A DNA stretch of 64,000 bases, from contig OZ245006.1 in NCBI GenBank assembly GCA_965223545.1, positions 1,280,001-1,344,000 on the forward strand. The letters run 5' to 3'. Within the stretch, counting starts at the first letter, position 1. The number at the start of each line of letters is the position of its first letter. Below, one piece after another: positions 55,028 through 62,580 of this stretch. The notes under the pieces were generated by a model, which worked only from the letters and a program-made list of their open reading frames with translations, did not search any database and was not told where the DNA came from. The DNA is from Planctomycetota bacterium (lineage in GTDB: Bacteria; Planctomycetota; UBA1135; UBA2386). Position numbers and translations under genes: made by a program.

Positions 55028-57211
55028 CTACGGCTGGGCGCCGGCCCGGTACACGACGCGGTGGATGCCCTTGTCCGTTCCCGAGAGGTAGTCGAATCGG
55101 CCATCTTCGTGGACGCGGCCGACCAGCGTGTCATGTGGTTTGCGTCCAAGGAGCAACGCGCTGCCACTGCGGCCCATCGACGGGCGGGTCAACGGTGGGT
55201 ATTCGGTGAGGCACGTGATCCCGTCCAACGACAGGCCATTGACCGGCGACAGAGGGTCTGTTGGACGACCGGCCGGCGTGAGGGTGCGCCACATCGCGAG
55301 GTGGACTCCCTGCGGGCACGCGCGCAGGTGACCGACCTCCTGCCGTTGGCCGATCGGGACGAAGTGCGCAACCTCTCCGTCGCGGTAGAACTCGAGCACG
55401 GGCAGCCGATTCTTGCGCGGCGTCCCGACCGAGACCGGCACGCCGTAGCGCACCCAGTAAAGACCCGGCTTGCCGTTCTCGGTCACGCGGTCTTCGGCAA
55501 GGTGAGGCGCGATCCTCAGCCGGTCCTTCGCTGAATCGGCGAGTCGAGCGAAGCGCTCGCCGTTCAAGTACATCCAAGCACCCTGCTCTTCCGCCTCCAG
55601 GTCCCGAGCGGCAAAGCCGACGACGCACGCGTAGTGGGACCCGTCTCGGCTGAACACGGGAGCGTCGATTTGCGTGGCTCCGTGCAACCGGTGGACGCCG
55701 TCGTTGCTGATCAAGCTCCAACTGAAGTCGGAAGTGGCCCGACCTCCTCCATCGGCGCCGTTGACGACCACGGCGAAGCGCCCGCTCTCGTGTGCCGCGA
55801 CGACGTTGACGCGGCCAAGGGCGACCTCCTCTTCCTTGCCGGGTCTGCAGAGGAAGACGCGCTTGCCGACCGTGGCGACGTAGGTCGGGGCCGTGTCGCC
55901 AGGAGTGAAACCGACGTGGCGCACGGTCTCGTACTCGTTGCCGATGCCCTCCGCGGTGGCTACGGCAAGCCCGCCACCGGTCTTCGTAACGAACGCGACT
56001 TGACCACCATTCGACACCACGGGAGCGTTGCCGGCACTCCAATCCAACGGAGCGTGCTCGAGTTCCACGCCCTGGTGCACGACTGCGAGCTCGTTGCGCC
56101 GCCCGTCCTCCGTCCGCCGCTGCCTCGGGTAGACGAAGTGTTGCCCATCAGGGCTGAACACGGGCAGCCCGTCACAACCATCCAGCGGCTCCATCCCCTC
56201 GACGAGGAGCCGGCCGCCGGTCGCCGTGACCTCGTGGATCACCAGGCGCCCATCCGGTGCCACGGCAATCAGGTCGCCCTGACCGGCCAGCTCGCCCTCG
56301 ACGTAGACGGCGTAGTTGGGCACACCACCCTCCCCGCGGCCATTGCGACCGCGCGCCACCCAGCGCTCGTCGGCCAAGAACAGCAACTCGCCCATCCACT
56401 CGGCCTGCACCACGACCTCGCCGTCGACGACGACGACGTGCTCCAACTCCCCGGTGCGCATGCCGAAGTAGCCGAACCGCTTGCCGGACGGCGAGAACGC
56501 GAGCGCCTCGGTCGGCGGTTGCGCCAGCTCGGGCCCCTCGCGCCCATCGATCACGACGACGTAGCGGTCGCCGCGCCGGCCGATGTAGGCCAACCGATGT
56601 CCGGTTGGCCCGAGGACGAGCCCCGGCATCTCCAGGATCTCGTCGAAAGTCGGCCCGGTACTGCCGCCGAACTCCACCGCCACGCGGCTGCCCACCGGTC
56701 GGGTGATGGCGGCACGCTGCAAGTCGTCGGACACCGCGACGTGAGTCCGCATTTCGTCCACGTCGGTCGTGAAGCTGCCCGGCCGATCGTGGACCTTCAT
56801 GCGCTTCGACCAGCGCCCTTTCCACTCGATCAGCGGGCTCACATCCAGCGGCTGGAGATCCGTGAGCTCGATCCCCGAGGCACTGGCGGGCTGCGCAGCG
56901 CCCGTCGCCCCCTGGTCGACCGCCGGCTCCGCGCGCGGGTCACCATCGGCGACGCGCGGATCGGCCGGGCGCTTGTAGGGTTGCTTCGAGGTCGGCGTCT
57001 CGGCAGCGGGCGGGGCCTTGCCGGCCGGCGACGTCTCCGCGGCAGGCGGCGTCTCCGCGGCCACGTCGAACAGCTCCCCAACCGTGCGCTTTGCGCTCTC
57101 CAGCCCTTCTTGGATGGCGCCACAGCCGGGCGCGGCGACCAGCAAGAAGACGGGAAGCAGGACCATGGCGGCAGCGAACGCCACAGTGCGATGGGCGGGT
57201 GGTTGGAGCAT
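55028..57211 (-). CDS. Lipoprotein with WD40/TolB-like beta-propeller repeats
   Basis: Lipobox-like VAAPGC; Pro/Ala linker; repeats FSPSGKRFGY, FSPDGQHFVY, FSRDGSHYA. Confidence 0.75.
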   Translation of the reverse strand: MLQPPAHRTVAFAAAMVLLPVFLLVAAPGCGAIQEGLESAKRTVGELFDVAAETPPAAETSPAGKAPPAAETPTSKQPYKRPADPRVADGDPRAEPAVDQGATGAAQPASASGIELTDLQPLDVSPLIEWKGRWSKRMKVHDRPGSFTTDVDEMRTHVAVSDDLQRAAITRPVGSRVAVEFGGSTGPTFDEILEMPGLVLGPTGHRLAYIGRRGDRYVVVIDGREGPELAQPPTEALAFSPSGKRFGYFGMRTGELEHVVVVDGEVVVQAEWMGELLFLADERWVARGRNGRGEGGVPNYAVYVEGELAGQGDLIAVAPDGRLVIHEVTATGGRLLVEGMEPLDGCDGLPVFSPDGQHFVYPRQRRTEDGRRNELAVVHQGVELEHAPLDWSAGNAPVVSNGGQVAFVTKTGGGLAVATAEGIGNEYETVRHVGFTPGDTAPTYVATVGKRVFLCRPGKEEEVALGRVNVVAAHESGRFAVVVNGADGGGRATSDFSWSLISNDGVHRLHGATQIDAPVFSRDGSHYACVVGFAARDLEAEEQGAWMYLNGERFARLADSAKDRLRIAPHLAEDRVTENGKPGLYWVRYGVPVSVGTPRKNRLPVLEFYRDGEVAHFVPIGQRQEVGHLRACPQGVHLAMWRTLTPAGRPTDPLSPVNGLSLDGITCLTEYPPLTRPSMGRSGSALLLGRKPHDTLVGRVHEDGRFDYLSGTDKGIHRVVYRAGAQP

Positions 57212-57402
57212 GGGAGACCTCGATGGACGGTCGACGACGACGGGGTCGCCGCCCCGCGCTCGCGGGGCGGACACCGGCCTGACCGACCAGGCGTTCGTCA
57301 TACCATGCGTAGGGGGCCCCCCGCTACCGCACCGATTTTCGCGGCAACGCCAGTCTCTCCCCAACCGCCCACCACAAGGCGGGCTCGCGGCAGGCGTGGC
57401 GG

Positions 57403-58353
57403 TCAGTGGTCGCGCAGCGACTCCTTGAGTTGCTCCAGTCCCTGCTCCAAACGACTGAGGTAGCGGTCGAGCCGGCGGTCGCCGGCCATGCGCTCCTTGA
57501 GCTCGCGCATCAGCCGTTCGTAGAGAGCCACGTCGCTCTCGGCCACTGCGTGGGCAAACAGATACTGCCAGAACGACGTGACCTGCGAGCTGGTCGGCAC
57601 GCGACCGGCATCGAGCATCGCCAAGAACTTCGCGCCGCCAGCGGCCATCTCGGTGCGCTTCGTGGAGCGGAGGATGTCGCGAAACTCGAGATTCACCAAC
57701 ATCGGTTGCAGGGGGCGCAGCTCCTCGTCGTCGAGCGAGAAGCGCTGCAGCGCCGCCTGCGCTTCGGCAAACGTGATGTAGCCCTCGCGCAGCTCCAGGG
57801 CGAAGAGCTCACGGGCGGCGGCGCCCGCCGGATCATCGATCGCCGCCTTGCGGCGCTGGTAGTCGTGCAGCTTGACGTAGGCCTGCTCGAGCTGGTCCAT
57901 GGTGACGACGTGGCCGACCTGCACGAGGAGGCGGCCGTCGGCACCGAGGAACGAGACCGTCGGGAAGCCGTTGCCACCCTTCTCGAACAGCAGGTCGGGA
58001 TACGGTTCGTCGTCACAATGCGACGTGTTGTGCAAGAACAGCACCACCTTCTTGGACCACTGCGCGAAGTCGTCGGTCGAGAGCGCACGGCTCTCGAGGG
58101 CGTCACACGGGCCTCAAGGTGCGTAGCTGCGCGTGAAGTAGGTCAGGATCAGCTTGCCGTCCGCCTCCGCCTCGCGGCGCGCGGCATCGTAGTCGAGCCG
58201 CCACGCGGCATTCTTGAACACTGGCTTGGCGAGCTTCTCGGACCGCTGCGCGCGCAGCCGCTCCTGATCGCCACCCGCTTGGGCACACGCCAGCCCACTG
58301 AGCAGCACCGCACCGACCGCGGTCCAACCGGTCACACCGATGAGTCGAGACAA
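57403..58353 (-). CDS. Exported thioredoxin-like selenoprotein (UxxC; Sec codon at 58114-58116), about 316 aa
   Basis: AAGGAGG RBS 5 nt before TTG at 58353; signal peptide; W..DYDAARREA...KLILTYFTRSYAP-TGA-GPCDALE reads in frame into ORF 57403..58047, which has GFPT (cis-Pro motif). Confidence 0.85.
58077..58097 (-). promoter_or_regulatory. Bacterial SECIS-like hairpin
   Basis: mRNA UCGAGAGC-CGUGC-GCUCUCGA: perfect 8-bp stem beginning after a 16-nt spacer from the UGA, with GU near the 5' side of the loop. Confidence 0.7.
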
Positions 58354-58480
58354 AGGCACCTCCTTGGAATGCGCTTGTGATACGACAAACCCGACCGGGG
58401 TTCGCATTCCGCCGTTTTTTGCCGTCCTGCGTGCTGGCGTCACCGTTGCGCGCCGCCATCCGGCCCGTCACACTGCGGCG

Positions 58481-59440
58481 ATGAGTGCCGCACCCTCCAT
58501 CGAGGCCGTCGAGACCCTCCTCGACCGCCCCCTGCTGGATCTTGTCTACGAGGCCGCAACGGTGCACCGGACCCACCACGCCCCGGGCGCGGTGCAGTGT
58601 GCCCAGCTCGCCAGCATCAAGACCGGGGGTTGCCCCGAGGACTGTGGCTACTGCTCGCAGAGCGCGCGTTTCGACACCCCGATCGAGGCCCACGCGCTGC
58701 TGCCCGCGAGCGAAGTGCTGGCGCGCGCCCAGGCCGCCGCCGCCGGCGGCGCCGACCGGTTTTGCATGGGCGCTGCCTGGCGCGCGGCGCCGGAGGGGGC
58801 GCGTTTCGAGTCGGTCCTGCAGATGGTGCGCGAGGTCAAGGCGCTCGGTCTGGAGACCTGCGCGACGCTCGGCATGCTGACGAAAGGGCAGGCGGAACGG
58901 CTGCGCGAGGCCGGCCTCGACTACTACAACCACAACCTCGACACCGGCCGCAGCCACTACGGGCACGTCGTCACCACGCGTACCTACGACGATCGCCTGC
59001 AGACGCTGGCGCACGCGCGGGAGGCCGGCCTGAAGCTCTGCTGTGGTGGCATTCTCGGCCTCGGCGAGGACCGCCGGGCGCGCGCCGAGCTGCTCGTCGA
59101 GCTGGCAGCGATGGCGCCGCCGCCCGAGTCCGTGCCGATCAACACGCTGGTCCCGGTCGAGGGCACGCCGATGCAGCATCACGAGCCCGTCGATTGGAGT
59201 GAGGTGCTGCGCACGGTCGCCGCGGCGCGCATCGTGCTGCCGGCAAGCGCGCTCCGGCTCAGCGCCGGGCGCCGCGAGCTCGGCGAGGCCGGCCAGGCTC
59301 TCTGCTTCCTGGCGGGCGCGAACTCCATCTTCACCGGAGACGTCCTGCTCACCGCGGCCAACGCGACGCCGGACGCCGACGCCACCCTGCTGGCCAAGCT
59401 CGGTCTCCATCGCTCGGCGCACGCGACGGCGGCGCGATGA
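58481..59440 (+). CDS. bioB: Biotin synthase
   Basis: SIKTGGCPEDCGYCSQS, RFCMGAAWR, YYNHNLDT, PESVPIN, CFLAGANSIF. Confidence 0.97.
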   Translation: MSAAPSIEAVETLLDRPLLDLVYEAATVHRTHHAPGAVQCAQLASIKTGGCPEDCGYCSQSARFDTPIEAHALLPASEVLARAQAAAAGGADRFCMGAAWRAAPEGARFESVLQMVREVKALGLETCATLGMLTKGQAERLREAGLDYYNHNLDTGRSHYGHVVTTRTYDDRLQTLAHAREAGLKLCCGGILGLGEDRRARAELLVELAAMAPPPESVPINTLVPVEGTPMQHHEPVDWSEVLRTVAAARIVLPASALRLSAGRRELGEAGQALCFLAGANSIFTGDVLLTAANATPDADATLLAKLGLHRSAHATAAR

Positions 59441-62400
59441 CTCCGCCGGACGCCGCGGCACGCCGCCGCGCCCTGTGGCAGGGCGAGCTGGACGACCTGC
59501 GCGCGCAGGACCGACTGCGCGCGTTGCCGGGTCGGCCGGCCGGCATCGATTTCGTTTCCAACGACTACCTCGGGCTGCGGCACCACCCCGCGTTGCGGCG
59601 CGCGGCGCACACCGCCATCACCCGCGATGGCTGCGGCGCCGGCGCAGCGCGCCTGCTCGGTGGCGCGGCGGAGGCCAGCCTCGCCCTCGAGCACCGCGTC
59701 GCCGCCTGGCTGGGCACGCCCGCCGCCTTGCTGTTCCCGTCGGGCTATCAAGCCAACTTGGGCGTGATCACCGCGCTGGCCGATCGCGAGGACGTCATCC
59801 TCAGCGACGCCTTGATCCACGCGTCCTCGATCGATGCCTGCCGGCAGACGCGCGCCACGGTCCGCGTGTTCGCCCATGCGGACCTGGAGGCTTTGGACGC
59901 CGCGCTGACGGCCGGACGCGACGCCCGCCGCCGGTTGGTCCTGACCGAGGGCGTGTTCGGCATGGACGGCGACGTGCCACGCTTGCGCGAGATGCACGCA
60001 CTGTGCGCGGCGCACGACGCCTGGCTGATCGTCGACGAGGCGCACTCCGCCGGCCTGCTCGGTCCGCGCGGGCGCGGCGCGTGGGCAGCGCACGGCGGCC
60101 GGGACGACCGCGCGCTGGCAGCCCGTGTCGTCACCTTCGGCAAGGCGCTCGGCAGCGCGGGCGCAGCGGTGGCGGGCGATGCCGAGCTGTGCGCACTGCT
60201 CGCCCAACGGGCACGCAGCTTCGTGTTCAGCACGGCGCCGGCGCCGGCGGTCATTGCCGCTGCCGGCGCAGCCATCGAGCTCGTCCAGCAAAGCTCGGCC
60301 GAGCGCGACCGCGCACTGCAGCTGGCGCGGCGGTTGGCACACGGGCTCGACCTGCAGCCGCCGGATGCGGCAATCGTGCCACTTCCGGTCGGCGACGACG
60401 CTCGCGCGGTGCAGCTGGCGACCACGCTGCAACAACGCGGTTTCGACGTCCGCGCCGTCCGGCCGCCAACCGTGCCCCCTGGCACGGCACGGCTCCGGCT
60501 GGTGTGCCACGCCACCAACACCGAAGCGCAAGTCGATGCGCTGGTCGAGGTGATCACCGCGCCGGCTGCACGCACGGAGCGGAGTCGCCGCGCCGGCGGA
60601 GGGGGACGGGGTGATGAACGGGAGCCTGGCTCCGTACGTTCGTGTCAGGTGTTTGTCGCGGGGACGGACACCGGGATCGGCAAGACGGTGGTCGCCGCCG
60701 CGCTCGTACGTTCGCTGGGTGGAGGGAGTGGAGGTGCGGTGCGCTACTACAAGCCGGTGCAGACTGGTGAGGACGACGACACGGGGACGGTGCGCGCGCT
60801 CACCGGCGACGCCGCGGCCACCGCGGCGCCGCCGCTGCACGAGTTGCCGCTGCCCGCTTCGCCGCACGAGGCGGCGCGGGACGCAGGCGTGCAGATCGAT
60901 CTCGGTTCGGTGCGCGATTCGCTGCACCGGCTGCAGGCGGCGGGGCCCGCCGGTGCGGACTGGGTCGTCGAGCTGGCCGGCGGCTTGATGGTGCCGTATG
61001 GCGACGGCTCGCTGCAGATCGACTGGCTCGCCGAAGCCGCGGCCGGCGGCGCCCGGGTGGTCCTGGTCGCGCGCTCGGGACTCGGCACCCTCAACCACAG
61101 CTTGCTGTCGCTGCAGGCGCTGCGCGCGCGCGGCGTGACGCCCACGGCGCTGGTGCTGGTCGGCGCGCCCCACGATAGCAACCGCGCCACCCTCGCCGCG
61201 CTCGCGGCCCCGGTGCCGGTCGTCGAGCTGCCTGTTCTCGAGCCCTTGACCGCAGAGACTCTCGCGCAGTGGGCCGCGACCCACGACTGGCCCGCGCTGC
61301 TGCGCGCGACCGAACCCGTTGCGGAAGAGGACTGGGCCGTGCGTGGCCATCGCTGCCTGTGGCATCCCTACACCCAGCACGGCACCGACGACACTCCGCT
61401 GCCCGTCGTCGAAGCCAGCGGCTCGTGGCTGACCTTGGCCGACGGCCGCCGCATCCTCGACGGGATCTCGTCGTGGTGGACCTCACTGCACGGCCACGGC
61501 CGTGCCGAGATCCTCGACGCGGTCCGCACCCAGGGTGCGCGCCTCGACCACGTGCTGTTCGCCGGCGCCACCCACCGGCCGGCAGTCGAGCTCGCCGAGC
61601 GGCTGCTCGCCCTGGCACCGCCCGGTCTGGCCCGCGTGTTCTACAGTGACGACGGCTCCACCGCGGTGGAGGTCGCGTTGAAGATCGTGCGCCAGGCGTG
61701 GGTGCAGCGCGGCGAGCCCCAGCGCCGGGTCCTCGTCGCCCTCGATGGCGGCTACCACGGCGACACCCTCGGCGCGATGGCGGTCGGCGACCCCGAGCCG
61801 TTCTTCGCCGCCTACCGGCCGTGGCTGTTCGAGGTCGAACGCGTGCCCGCCGAGGCCGAGGCCATCGCCGGTGCGTTGCAGCGGTTGGGAGAGCGCGCCG
61901 CCGGGGTGATCGCCGAGCCCCTGGTGCAGGGGGCGGCCGGAATGCGCATGCACGGACCCGAGCTGCTGCAAACGATCCGTGCCGTGTGCGATCGCCACGA
62001 CGTGCCGTGGATCGCCGACGAAGTGATGACGGGCTTCGGCCGCACGGGCGCCGTGTTCGCCTGCAGCCACGCGGGCGTCCGCCCCGACCTGATGTGCGTC
62101 GCGAAGGGGCTGACCGGCGGCGTGCTGCCGCTCGCCGCGACGCTGGTCGCCGAGCCGTGGTTCGAGGCGTTCCTCGCCCCCGACAAGGGCCGCATGTTCT
62201 TTCACGGCCACTCCTTTACCGCCAACCCATTGGGCTGCGCCGCCGCCCTGGCCTCGCTGGACTTGATCGAGCGCGAAGCGACGCCGCTGCGGCTGGACGG
62301 GCTCGGCCAACGCATCGAGACCGAGCTGCGGCGCCGGCTTCCCAACCCGGCGGCGCTCGGTCTTCGCCGCTGCGGCGGCATCGTCGCGCTCGACGTTCAG

Positions 62401-62580
62401 CGAGACGGTGGCTACCTCGACGACATCGCAGGAACGCTGCGGGCGGCGGCAGTCGAACGCGGCTGTCTGCTGCGCCCGCTGGGACCGGTGGTCTACGCGA
62501 TGCCCCCCGCCTCGACGACCGAGGCCGAGGCCGACCGGATCGCCGACGTCATGGCGAGCCTGGCCGAGGGTGCTGGTTGA
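59437..62580 (+). CDS. bioF-bioD-bioA: Trifunctional BioF-BioD-BioA fusion (KAPA synthase, dethiobiotin synthetase, DAPA aminotransferase), 1047 aa
   Basis: BioF: SNDYLGL, VDEAHS, TFGKALG, AVRPPTVP. BioD: GTDTGIGKT, KPVQTG, LGTLNH. BioA: WHPYTQ, SSWW, DDGSTAVEVALK, YHGDT, DEVMTGFGRTG, AKGLTGG. Confidence 0.92.
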   Translation: MTPPDAAARRRALWQGELDDLRAQDRLRALPGRPAGIDFVSNDYLGLRHHPALRRAAHTAITRDGCGAGAARLLGGAAEASLALEHRVAAWLGTPAALLFPSGYQANLGVITALADREDVILSDALIHASSIDACRQTRATVRVFAHADLEALDAALTAGRDARRRLVLTEGVFGMDGDVPRLREMHALCAAHDAWLIVDEAHSAGLLGPRGRGAWAAHGGRDDRALAARVVTFGKALGSAGAAVAGDAELCALLAQRARSFVFSTAPAPAVIAAAGAAIELVQQSSAERDRALQLARRLAHGLDLQPPDAAIVPLPVGDDARAVQLATTLQQRGFDVRAVRPPTVPPGTARLRLVCHATNTEAQVDALVEVITAPAARTERSRRAGGGGRGDEREPGSVRSCQVFVAGTDTGIGKTVVAAALVRSLGGGSGGAVRYYKPVQTGEDDDTGTVRALTGDAAATAAPPLHELPLPASPHEAARDAGVQIDLGSVRDSLHRLQAAGPAGADWVVELAGGLMVPYGDGSLQIDWLAEAAAGGARVVLVARSGLGTLNHSLLSLQALRARGVTPTALVLVGAPHDSNRATLAALAAPVPVVELPVLEPLTAETLAQWAATHDWPALLRATEPVAEEDWAVRGHRCLWHPYTQHGTDDTPLPVVEASGSWLTLADGRRILDGISSWWTSLHGHGRAEILDAVRTQGARLDHVLFAGATHRPAVELAERLLALAPPGLARVFYSDDGSTAVEVALKIVRQAWVQRGEPQRRVLVALDGGYHGDTLGAMAVGDPEPFFAAYRPWLFEVERVPAEAEAIAGALQRLGERAAGVIAEPLVQGAAGMRMHGPELLQTIRAVCDRHDVPWIADEVMTGFGRTGAVFACSHAGVRPDLMCVAKGLTGGVLPLAATLVAEPWFEAFLAPDKGRMFFHGHSFTANPLGCAAALASLDLIEREATPLRLDGLGQRIETELRRRLPNPAALGLRRCGGIVALDVQRDGGYLDDIAGTLRAAAVERGCLLRPLGPVVYAMPPASTTEAEADRIADVMASLAEGAG

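Follow-up and report, generated by a model that had tools for sequence, protein, structure and literature searches.

The locus considered here lies on the minus strand of a 64,000-nucleotide stretch of Planctomycetota DNA (referred to below, at its full length, as the window) and raises the question of whether an in-frame TGA ends one gene and separates it from a second, or whether this codon is decoded as selenocysteine (Sec) within a single gene. Two open reading frames, 58114..58443 and 57403..58047, share a common frame and have a TGA at 58116-58114 between them; read from a TTG at 58353 with TGA taken as U, they yield a protein of 316 residues with U80 in the context YFTRSYAP-U-GPC-DALE. 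The whole gene (57403..58353, minus strand) comprises 316 codons plus a stop, the terminal TGA at 57405-57403; the predicted Sec80 occupies 58114..58116 (minus strand) at position 1 of U-G-P-C, and Cys83, the second residue of the UxxC motif, is encoded at 58105..58107 (minus strand). A Shine-Dalgarno-like sequence, AAGGAGGT (58358..58365, minus strand), lies 4 nt upstream of the TTG, and the same start is used by the database N-terminal fragment P0170. In the protein database the gene appears as two separate products, 79 and 214 aa long, and homologues can be aligned across the TGA position; all 10 short N-terminal fragments that were fetched (from 15 hits, one of them the gene's own) stop one residue before the Sec column. 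A first-pass annotation of this DNA had proposed one frame with a single intervening TGA and a strong ribosome binding site, and had anticipated that gene callers would split the gene; the frame listing and translation, the position of AAGGAGGT and the two database products agree with it on each of these points. No sigma-70-like promoter or terminator was found on the gene's strand within 57200-58600. A contig in run X1 spans the whole stretch with 0 differences, but this match is not independent because that contig is probably the source. The two apparent frames are almost certainly one gene encoding a thioredoxin-type enzyme that is likely secreted.

The gene is flanked by a divergent bioB (58340-59440), behind which a single 1047-aa ORF (59437-62580, plus strand) carries aminotransferase I/II, AAA_26 and aminotransferase III domains and is apparently a BioF-BioD-BioA triple fusion. 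Downstream, a co-oriented ORF (55028-57364, minus strand) with a weak WD40-like/PD40 match is absent beside the eight homologue loci that were checked. Comparison of the window with these eight close homologue loci (8-9 kb flanks) identified no neighbour gene that the window has in common with them, only scattered single matches occurring among the loci themselves; a link to the adjacent biotin genes is therefore unsupported.

Homologues are numerous. Of 61 related genomes, 53 have a match, among them all 36 from the same family, and matches were also found in 62 of 201 genomes sampled across the phylum (E <= 1e-15); one relative has up to 13 matches at E <= 0.001, and 1113 cluster representatives match at that threshold. 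For alignment of the active-site column, we combined 30 loci from the search of relatives, 52 additional regions, selected so that most strong hits lacking an internal stop were covered, and 40 regions yielded by the phylum search, for the most part its strongest hits; after 9 rows gapped at the site and duplicate contexts had been dropped, 134 copies remained, the proportions of which do not represent an unbiased census. The column holds TGA in 108 copies, Cys in 17 and other codons in 9, with TGA in 70 of the 92 copies from relatives and in 38 of the 42 from the wider phylum. All TGA copies are UxxC, and the second Cys is thus present in 108/108; the motif is UPPC in 66, UGPC in 30 and another in 12, with Pro at its third position in 106 of 108. 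Among 150 database representatives, 62 have CxxC at the site, while some full-length paralogues have neither or only one of the redox residues. A pattern scan of species genomes using the single protein gave no matches, and a later pattern search gave only five non-TGA relatives (four of the five named records being Planctomycetota), because that pattern required Cys.

The paralogues also include forms with another active site. In the source genome, L067 (G000:C1:5163832-5164695, minus strand) is a Cys-type paralogue with the motif C-G-T-S-I-R-C, near an ORF that, by its motif, resembles an IS110-type transposase. Six rows of this type, from six genomes, form one starred clade, which suggests a subfamily with changed active-site spacing. 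Tandem family copies occur in relatives (L030, L039, L047, L053, L073, L121 and L141), some of them mixing Sec and non-Sec members.

In bacteria, Sec is inserted at UGA when SelB, together with Sec-tRNA, binds the loop of a SECIS hairpin. At the present locus, a bacterial SECIS-like hairpin (TCGAGAGC/CGTGC/GCTCTCGA; 58077..58097, minus strand) begins 16 nt past the TGA; as in the first-pass annotation, it has a perfect 8-bp stem and the loop CGUGC. This 5-nt loop has G and U at positions 2-3 and begins 24 nt after the UGA. The bSECIS definition given in section 5 of PMC13188914 includes a loop of 3-9 nt, a stem of 4-16 bp, a G in the first two loop positions, a loop 16-37 nt from the UGA and an energy of no more than -7.5 kcal/mol; the hairpin falls within these limits in loop (5 nt), stem (8 bp), G (position 2) and spacing (24), and also in energy, at -12.1 kcal/mol (-12.8 kcal/mol when the hairpin was folded separately). 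Folding evidence from this single gene is nevertheless modest because the z score weakens as the fragment is lengthened, from -2.80 (31 nt) to -1.22 (54 nt) and 0.34 (77 nt).

A strict SECIS rule, which is register-free, is satisfied by 80 of 108 TGA copies (28 fail it); among the copies with a sense codon it holds in 1 of 26, and the background rate is about 4% of codons. In the source genome, such a hairpin follows 116 of 3000 in-frame Cys codons that were sampled and 91 of the 2300 TGA codons that end long coding ORFs, or 35 of 3000 and 34 of 2300, respectively, if an 8-bp stem is required, and x-x-Cys follows 75 of the 2300 stops. In a fixed register, at least 7 of the 8 stem pairs are formed in 62 of 70 TGA copies versus 3 of 22 other copies (92 copies from relatives); only 19 of 38 phylum-level TGA copies retain this register, several being shifted by one base. 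One stem pair, +18/+36, joins third-codon positions (of Leu/Val/Phe and of Ser), and of the 56 TGA copies that have these codons, 39 show G-C, 17 show C-G and 0 a mismatch. Sense-codon copies of the family, which are a better control for this covariation than Leu/Ser codons genome-wide, have G-C or C-G in 10 of 22 and any pair in 11 of 22; the genome-wide Leu/Ser third-base control (37 of 54 complementary) is weak because it is not frame-restricted. GGT, CGT or AGT serves as the loop codon in 55 of 70 TGA copies versus 1 of 22 others among relatives, even though these codons are rare in the source genome (13.5, 6.2 and 13.6% within their synonymous groups). When TGA and the SECIS rule were contrasted on starred branches, 5 independent pairs were available, with family copies being related; these are too few for significance (sign test p ~0.25), and, under the strict rule, none points the other way.

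The source genome (8.1 Mb, 70% GC, 91% complete) encodes the machinery for Sec use. selA (C1:1265034-1266101), the adjoining selD, which has its own in-frame TGA, and selB (C1:7664772-7666646) all score above curated cut-offs, and a tRNA-Sec(UCA), the selC product, is located at C1:7952888-7952986 (74 bits versus a cut-off of 47); in a default ARAGORN scan it is the only UCA-anticodon tRNA among 64. selA was found in 60 of 61 relatives and in 153 of the 201 genomes sampled across the phylum, which suggests that, within this sample, use of Sec is very common. Family members were identified in 61 of the 153 selA-positive and in 1 of the 48 selA-negative phylum genomes, kin among these not being independent; the sole selA-negative occurrence is a weak partial hit. 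The selenoprotein proposed in the first-pass annotation, with TGA at the first Cys position of a thioredoxin CxxC, hence gains support from several sides: selABCD are present, Cys homologues align at the TGA, TGA and hairpin are mostly kept in relatives together with the second Cys, and the stem covaries. We have little doubt that the gene is real, intact and encodes a predicted selenoprotein, and SelB carrying Sec-tRNA would, very probably, bind the SECIS loop and insert Sec at codon 80.

With regard to other candidate selenoproteins in this genome, inspection by eye of two rough scans (49 and 138 rows) picked out about 30 additional TGA codons within redox-type motifs. When 20 readthrough candidate loci were tested, a Pfam domain over its cut-off spanned the TGA in 11, three passed the cut-off of an NCBIfam model (those for formate dehydrogenase alpha, VPGUxxT type 2 and MsrA), one was a false positive and eight had no domain across the TGA. 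L174 was rejected as a readthrough gene, being two ordinary genes; by-eye counts therefore include false positives. Given the many TGA loci with redox motifs, the organism is a heavy user of Sec. The VPGUxxT type 2 protein (L166; G000:C1:4587608-4588735, minus strand) is above its cut-off and contains in-frame TGAs at two places, once within its thioredoxin part and once within an MsrA-like part. Eight candidates (L156, L157, L159, L160, L163, L164, L171 and L172) have no Pfam or NCBIfam domain over the TGA, and most have signal-peptide-like starts; the sequences flanking the TGA are similar in L160 and L172, and L157 contains two TGAs. These eight may represent additional uncatalogued selenoprotein families. 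The heme-copper oxidase subunit I family includes NO reductases as well as oxidases; four matches to it in the source genome suggest that the organism respires oxygen.

The protein, which is predicted to be exported, combines a thioredoxin-fold domain with a helical extension. A signal peptide is predicted at residues 1 to about 24/26 (58276..58353, minus strand) by a hydropathy heuristic, which gave an 11-residue mean of 2.21 for the N-terminus. The same heuristic, applied to 73 full-length members, detected a hydrophobic stretch at the N-terminus of 71, and neither a membrane-like segment further along nor a canonical lipobox in any of them (0 of 73 for each). A soluble, exported protein is predicted on this basis; the signal peptide is likely cleaved and not of the lipoprotein type. 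An AlphaFold2 model (pLDDT 93.5), built from an 89-row alignment with U modelled as C, consists of a disordered leader (low pLDDT in residues 1-20), a long helix, a thioredoxin fold and seven C-terminal helices. The thioredoxin-fold domain, DsbH/Thioredoxin_7-like, covers residues 47-166 or so (57856..58215, minus strand); PF13899 (Thioredoxin_7) matches it with 29.8 bits versus a cut-off of 27 and matches 69 of 89 members at E <= 0.01. The redox motif lies at the start of a helix. Pro131 is invariant (100%) at a GFP position that aligns with DsbH and corresponds to the cis-Pro position of the fold, W51 and H108 are each conserved at 99%, and His108, Glu87 and Ser76 are conserved residues specific to the family. 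In a VIA fold search, the closest matches to the thioredoxin domain were DsbH-type chains: 7tkv (Z 12.1), 3ira (Z 11.8) and 2ju5 (Z 11.6). The all-helical C-terminal domain, from about residue 176 to residue 316 (57406..57828, minus strand), has conserved G-R-x-P and F-W motifs; its seven helices in the model bear out the extension that had been expected from the sequence. Modelled alone from a single sequence (pLDDT 78.6), this domain gave only generic helical solenoid matches, with a best VIA Z of 9.5 that is below the level stated by the tool to be meaningful for helical bundles, and the VIA fold search identified no specific structural relative of the tail.

Pro at the third motif position is also found in reducing thioredoxin and CcmG-type motifs. 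From the fold, the x-P-C motif and the relationship to DsbH, we consider envelope disulfide reduction or isomerisation the probable role of the enzyme, the step from motif to redox direction being a loose one. The signal peptide would direct export to the periplasm, where the Sec80 selenolate may attack a substrate disulfide of an envelope protein and Cys83 would resolve the mixed bond, giving a selenenylsulfide; the helical tail may bind protein substrates or a partner, and re-reduction could proceed through the one DsbD-type transporter of the genome, itself a predicted selenoprotein. This scheme as a whole is, in our assessment, reasonably likely. The only DsbD_TM match in the genome (C1:4307002-4307631) falls in frame L165 (G000:C1:4306330-4308642, minus strand), which has DsbD_N, TM and thioredoxin domains and, in the last of these, an in-frame TGA in U-V-N-C with a SECIS-like hairpin; L165 scores below the NCBIfam DsbD cut-off and is predicted to be a Sec-containing DsbD, a plausible electron source for the Sec80 enzyme. 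A BLASTP comparison of P0001 with this DsbD candidate found no similarity, and the window and eight homologue loci contained no conserved neighbours by which the gene could be linked to a substrate or to DsbD.

Two other roles for the same selenoprotein were weighed. Oxidases and peroxidase-type enzymes are found among exported thioredoxin folds, Table 1 of PMC13188914 catalogues Sec-containing DsbA-like and Prx-like proteins, and the invariant, family-specific His108, Glu87 and Ser76 could serve other chemistry; a DsbA-like oxidase, or an enzyme that reduces peroxide or sulfenic acid, is still unlikely, as the Pfam matches of the 89 members contain no DsbA or AhpC family and the best solved relatives are of the DsbH, DsbD-gamma and thioredoxin types. 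The architecture, in which a thioredoxin domain is followed by an all-helical, solenoid-like tail, also invites comparison with CnoX/YbbN, which combines a thioredoxin with a C-terminal TPR-type helical domain and has holdase activity. If the protein were mainly a redox-regulated holdase chaperone that shields envelope proteins under oxidative stress, the full length of paralogues lacking one or both redox residues would be understandable, and 3qdn, annotated as a putative thioredoxin, is alone among the fold matches listed in having an alignment that extends to the final residues of the model. However, the 3qdn alignment has an rmsd of 15 A and is therefore no real two-domain match, the helical domain by itself gives only the generic hits described above, and conservation of UxxC in every TGA copy argues for catalytic turnover; we regard a predominantly chaperone function as improbable, and disulfide reduction or isomerisation remains the preferred role.

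Two further readings deny Sec altogether. TGA is a common stop in this genome, where it ends 2300 long coding ORFs, and the databases do contain two proteins, as would be expected if the codon were a true stop that arose by nonsense mutation or sequencing error or that separates two genes. By contrast, the same TGA is found in 108 divergent copies across many families, alongside Cys homologues; the second Cys is conserved, the stem covaries and the family depends on selA, while the first piece alone would amount to a signal peptide and a third of a thioredoxin fold. The first-pass annotation had named both a base-call error and a simple nonsense mutation as threats to its proposal: the former is excluded because the TGA recurs in over 100 divergent copies, and the latter is at odds with relatives in which TGA and hairpin prevail rather than Cys without a hairpin, which leaves a true stop very improbable. 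Readthrough of UGA as Cys or Trp by a non-Sec tRNA, to which the Cys in 17 of 134 copies might point, is hardly credible given that the only UCA-anticodon tRNA in the default ARAGORN scan is tRNA-Sec, that the gene's own stop is TGA and that the hairpin conforms to the bacterial SECIS model and has been lost from copies with a sense codon.

The phylogeny of the family bears on the order in which Sec and Cys arose at the active site. Both trees used here are unrooted, with the site column retained for Cys rows. A FastTree built from the full 134 rows requires 14 changes of the U label, with 5 of them forced by starred branches. In an IQ-TREE of 33 picked rows (28 U and 5 Cys), starred branches force the Cys rows into four separate positions; L028 (Cys) lies within three nested starred clades of otherwise Sec rows, and L050 (Cys) is sister to a Sec row and has retained a perfect hairpin. 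Parsimony favours repeated reversion from Sec to Cys in genomes that are still selA-positive. Section 10 of PMC13188914 describes Sec-to-Cys reversion as rare in bacteria and aerobes as rarely retaining selenoproteins. Taken jointly, the data could be read as a largely selenium-based envelope redox network of Planctomycetota of this kind, in which a Sec-DsbD feeds an ancient, multi-copy, exported family of Sec-thioredoxins with helical solenoids in oxygen-respiring cells, with Sec ancestral and Cys acquired by repeated reversion, sometimes leaving a fossil SECIS; we offer this reading tentatively and consider it doubtful as a whole. If true, the network and the ancestral position of Sec would run counter to the view of aerobes and of rare Sec-to-Cys change in that section of PMC13188914. 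The family itself is a widespread addition that is absent, as far as found, from the 2026 catalogue, and its active site is hidden because databases split its proteins. With its synonymous compensatory changes and the loss of the hairpin from most Cys copies, it also provides a natural SECIS data set that is unusually clean, as well as a test case for Sec-to-Cys reversion.

Among known proteins, the best solved sequence relative is chlamydial DsbH (2ju5, NF043050; profile E 3.4e-10), a reducing periplasmic dithiol oxidoreductase according to PMC5193440; 2ju5 is also a tied-best fold match to the family (Z 11.6, rmsd 2.5, 116 aligned, 21% identity). DsbH is Cys-only, has 154 residues and has no helical tail, whereas the present protein has an extra 140-residue domain and scores 27.8 bits against NF043050, far below the cut-off of 190 for membership. 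Trx7/PDZ (NF041199), VPGUxxT (NF041383) and TsoB (NF045694) have a Thioredoxin_7-type domain in common with the family, and their models match 26, 32 and 24 of the 89 members weakly (best E 8e-7, 1.4e-8 and 7.8e-7, respectively). Unlike these three, the present family has no PDZ, MsrA-like, rhodanese or membrane domain, and its motif is UxPC rather than the CxxU, VPGU and UxxxxU listed for them in PMC13188914. P0001 did not match any of the three models at E up to 1, no PDZ family was found among the Pfam matches of the 89 members, which places them outside Trx7/PDZ, and the Cys homologue P0004 scored 12.5 bits for NF041383 (cut-off 275) and 25.7 for NF045694 (cut-off 805), outside both. For P0001, P0004 and P0022, no NCBIfam model came near its cut-off, in line with the uncharacterised thioredoxin-like family that had been anticipated.

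The literature searched contained no occurrence of FTRSY together with a selenoprotein, Planctomycetota are absent from the main text of PMC13188914, PMC13326102 and PMC12013277, and 'thioredoxin' is absent from about 4 million characters of the BSepDB supplement, a portion outside which the family table probably lies. The architecture was not recognised among the 119 families in Table 1 of the 2026 review PMC13188914, where the catalogued bacterial UxxC selenoproteins with a thioredoxin fold are Trx (PF00085), thiol:disulfide interchange (PF13098), DsbG-like (NF041057) and TlpA-type (cd02966) proteins. With these UxxC proteins, as described in that table, the present family shares UGA at motif position 1, a second Cys, a SECIS within the coding region, Cys homologues and selABCD, and it differs from them in its Thioredoxin_7/DsbH-type domain, its FTRSY-x-x-U-x-P-C motif, its long N-terminal helix and its 140-residue helical tail. 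It is apparently an uncatalogued, phylum-wide and multi-copy family that uses a standard recoding mechanism.
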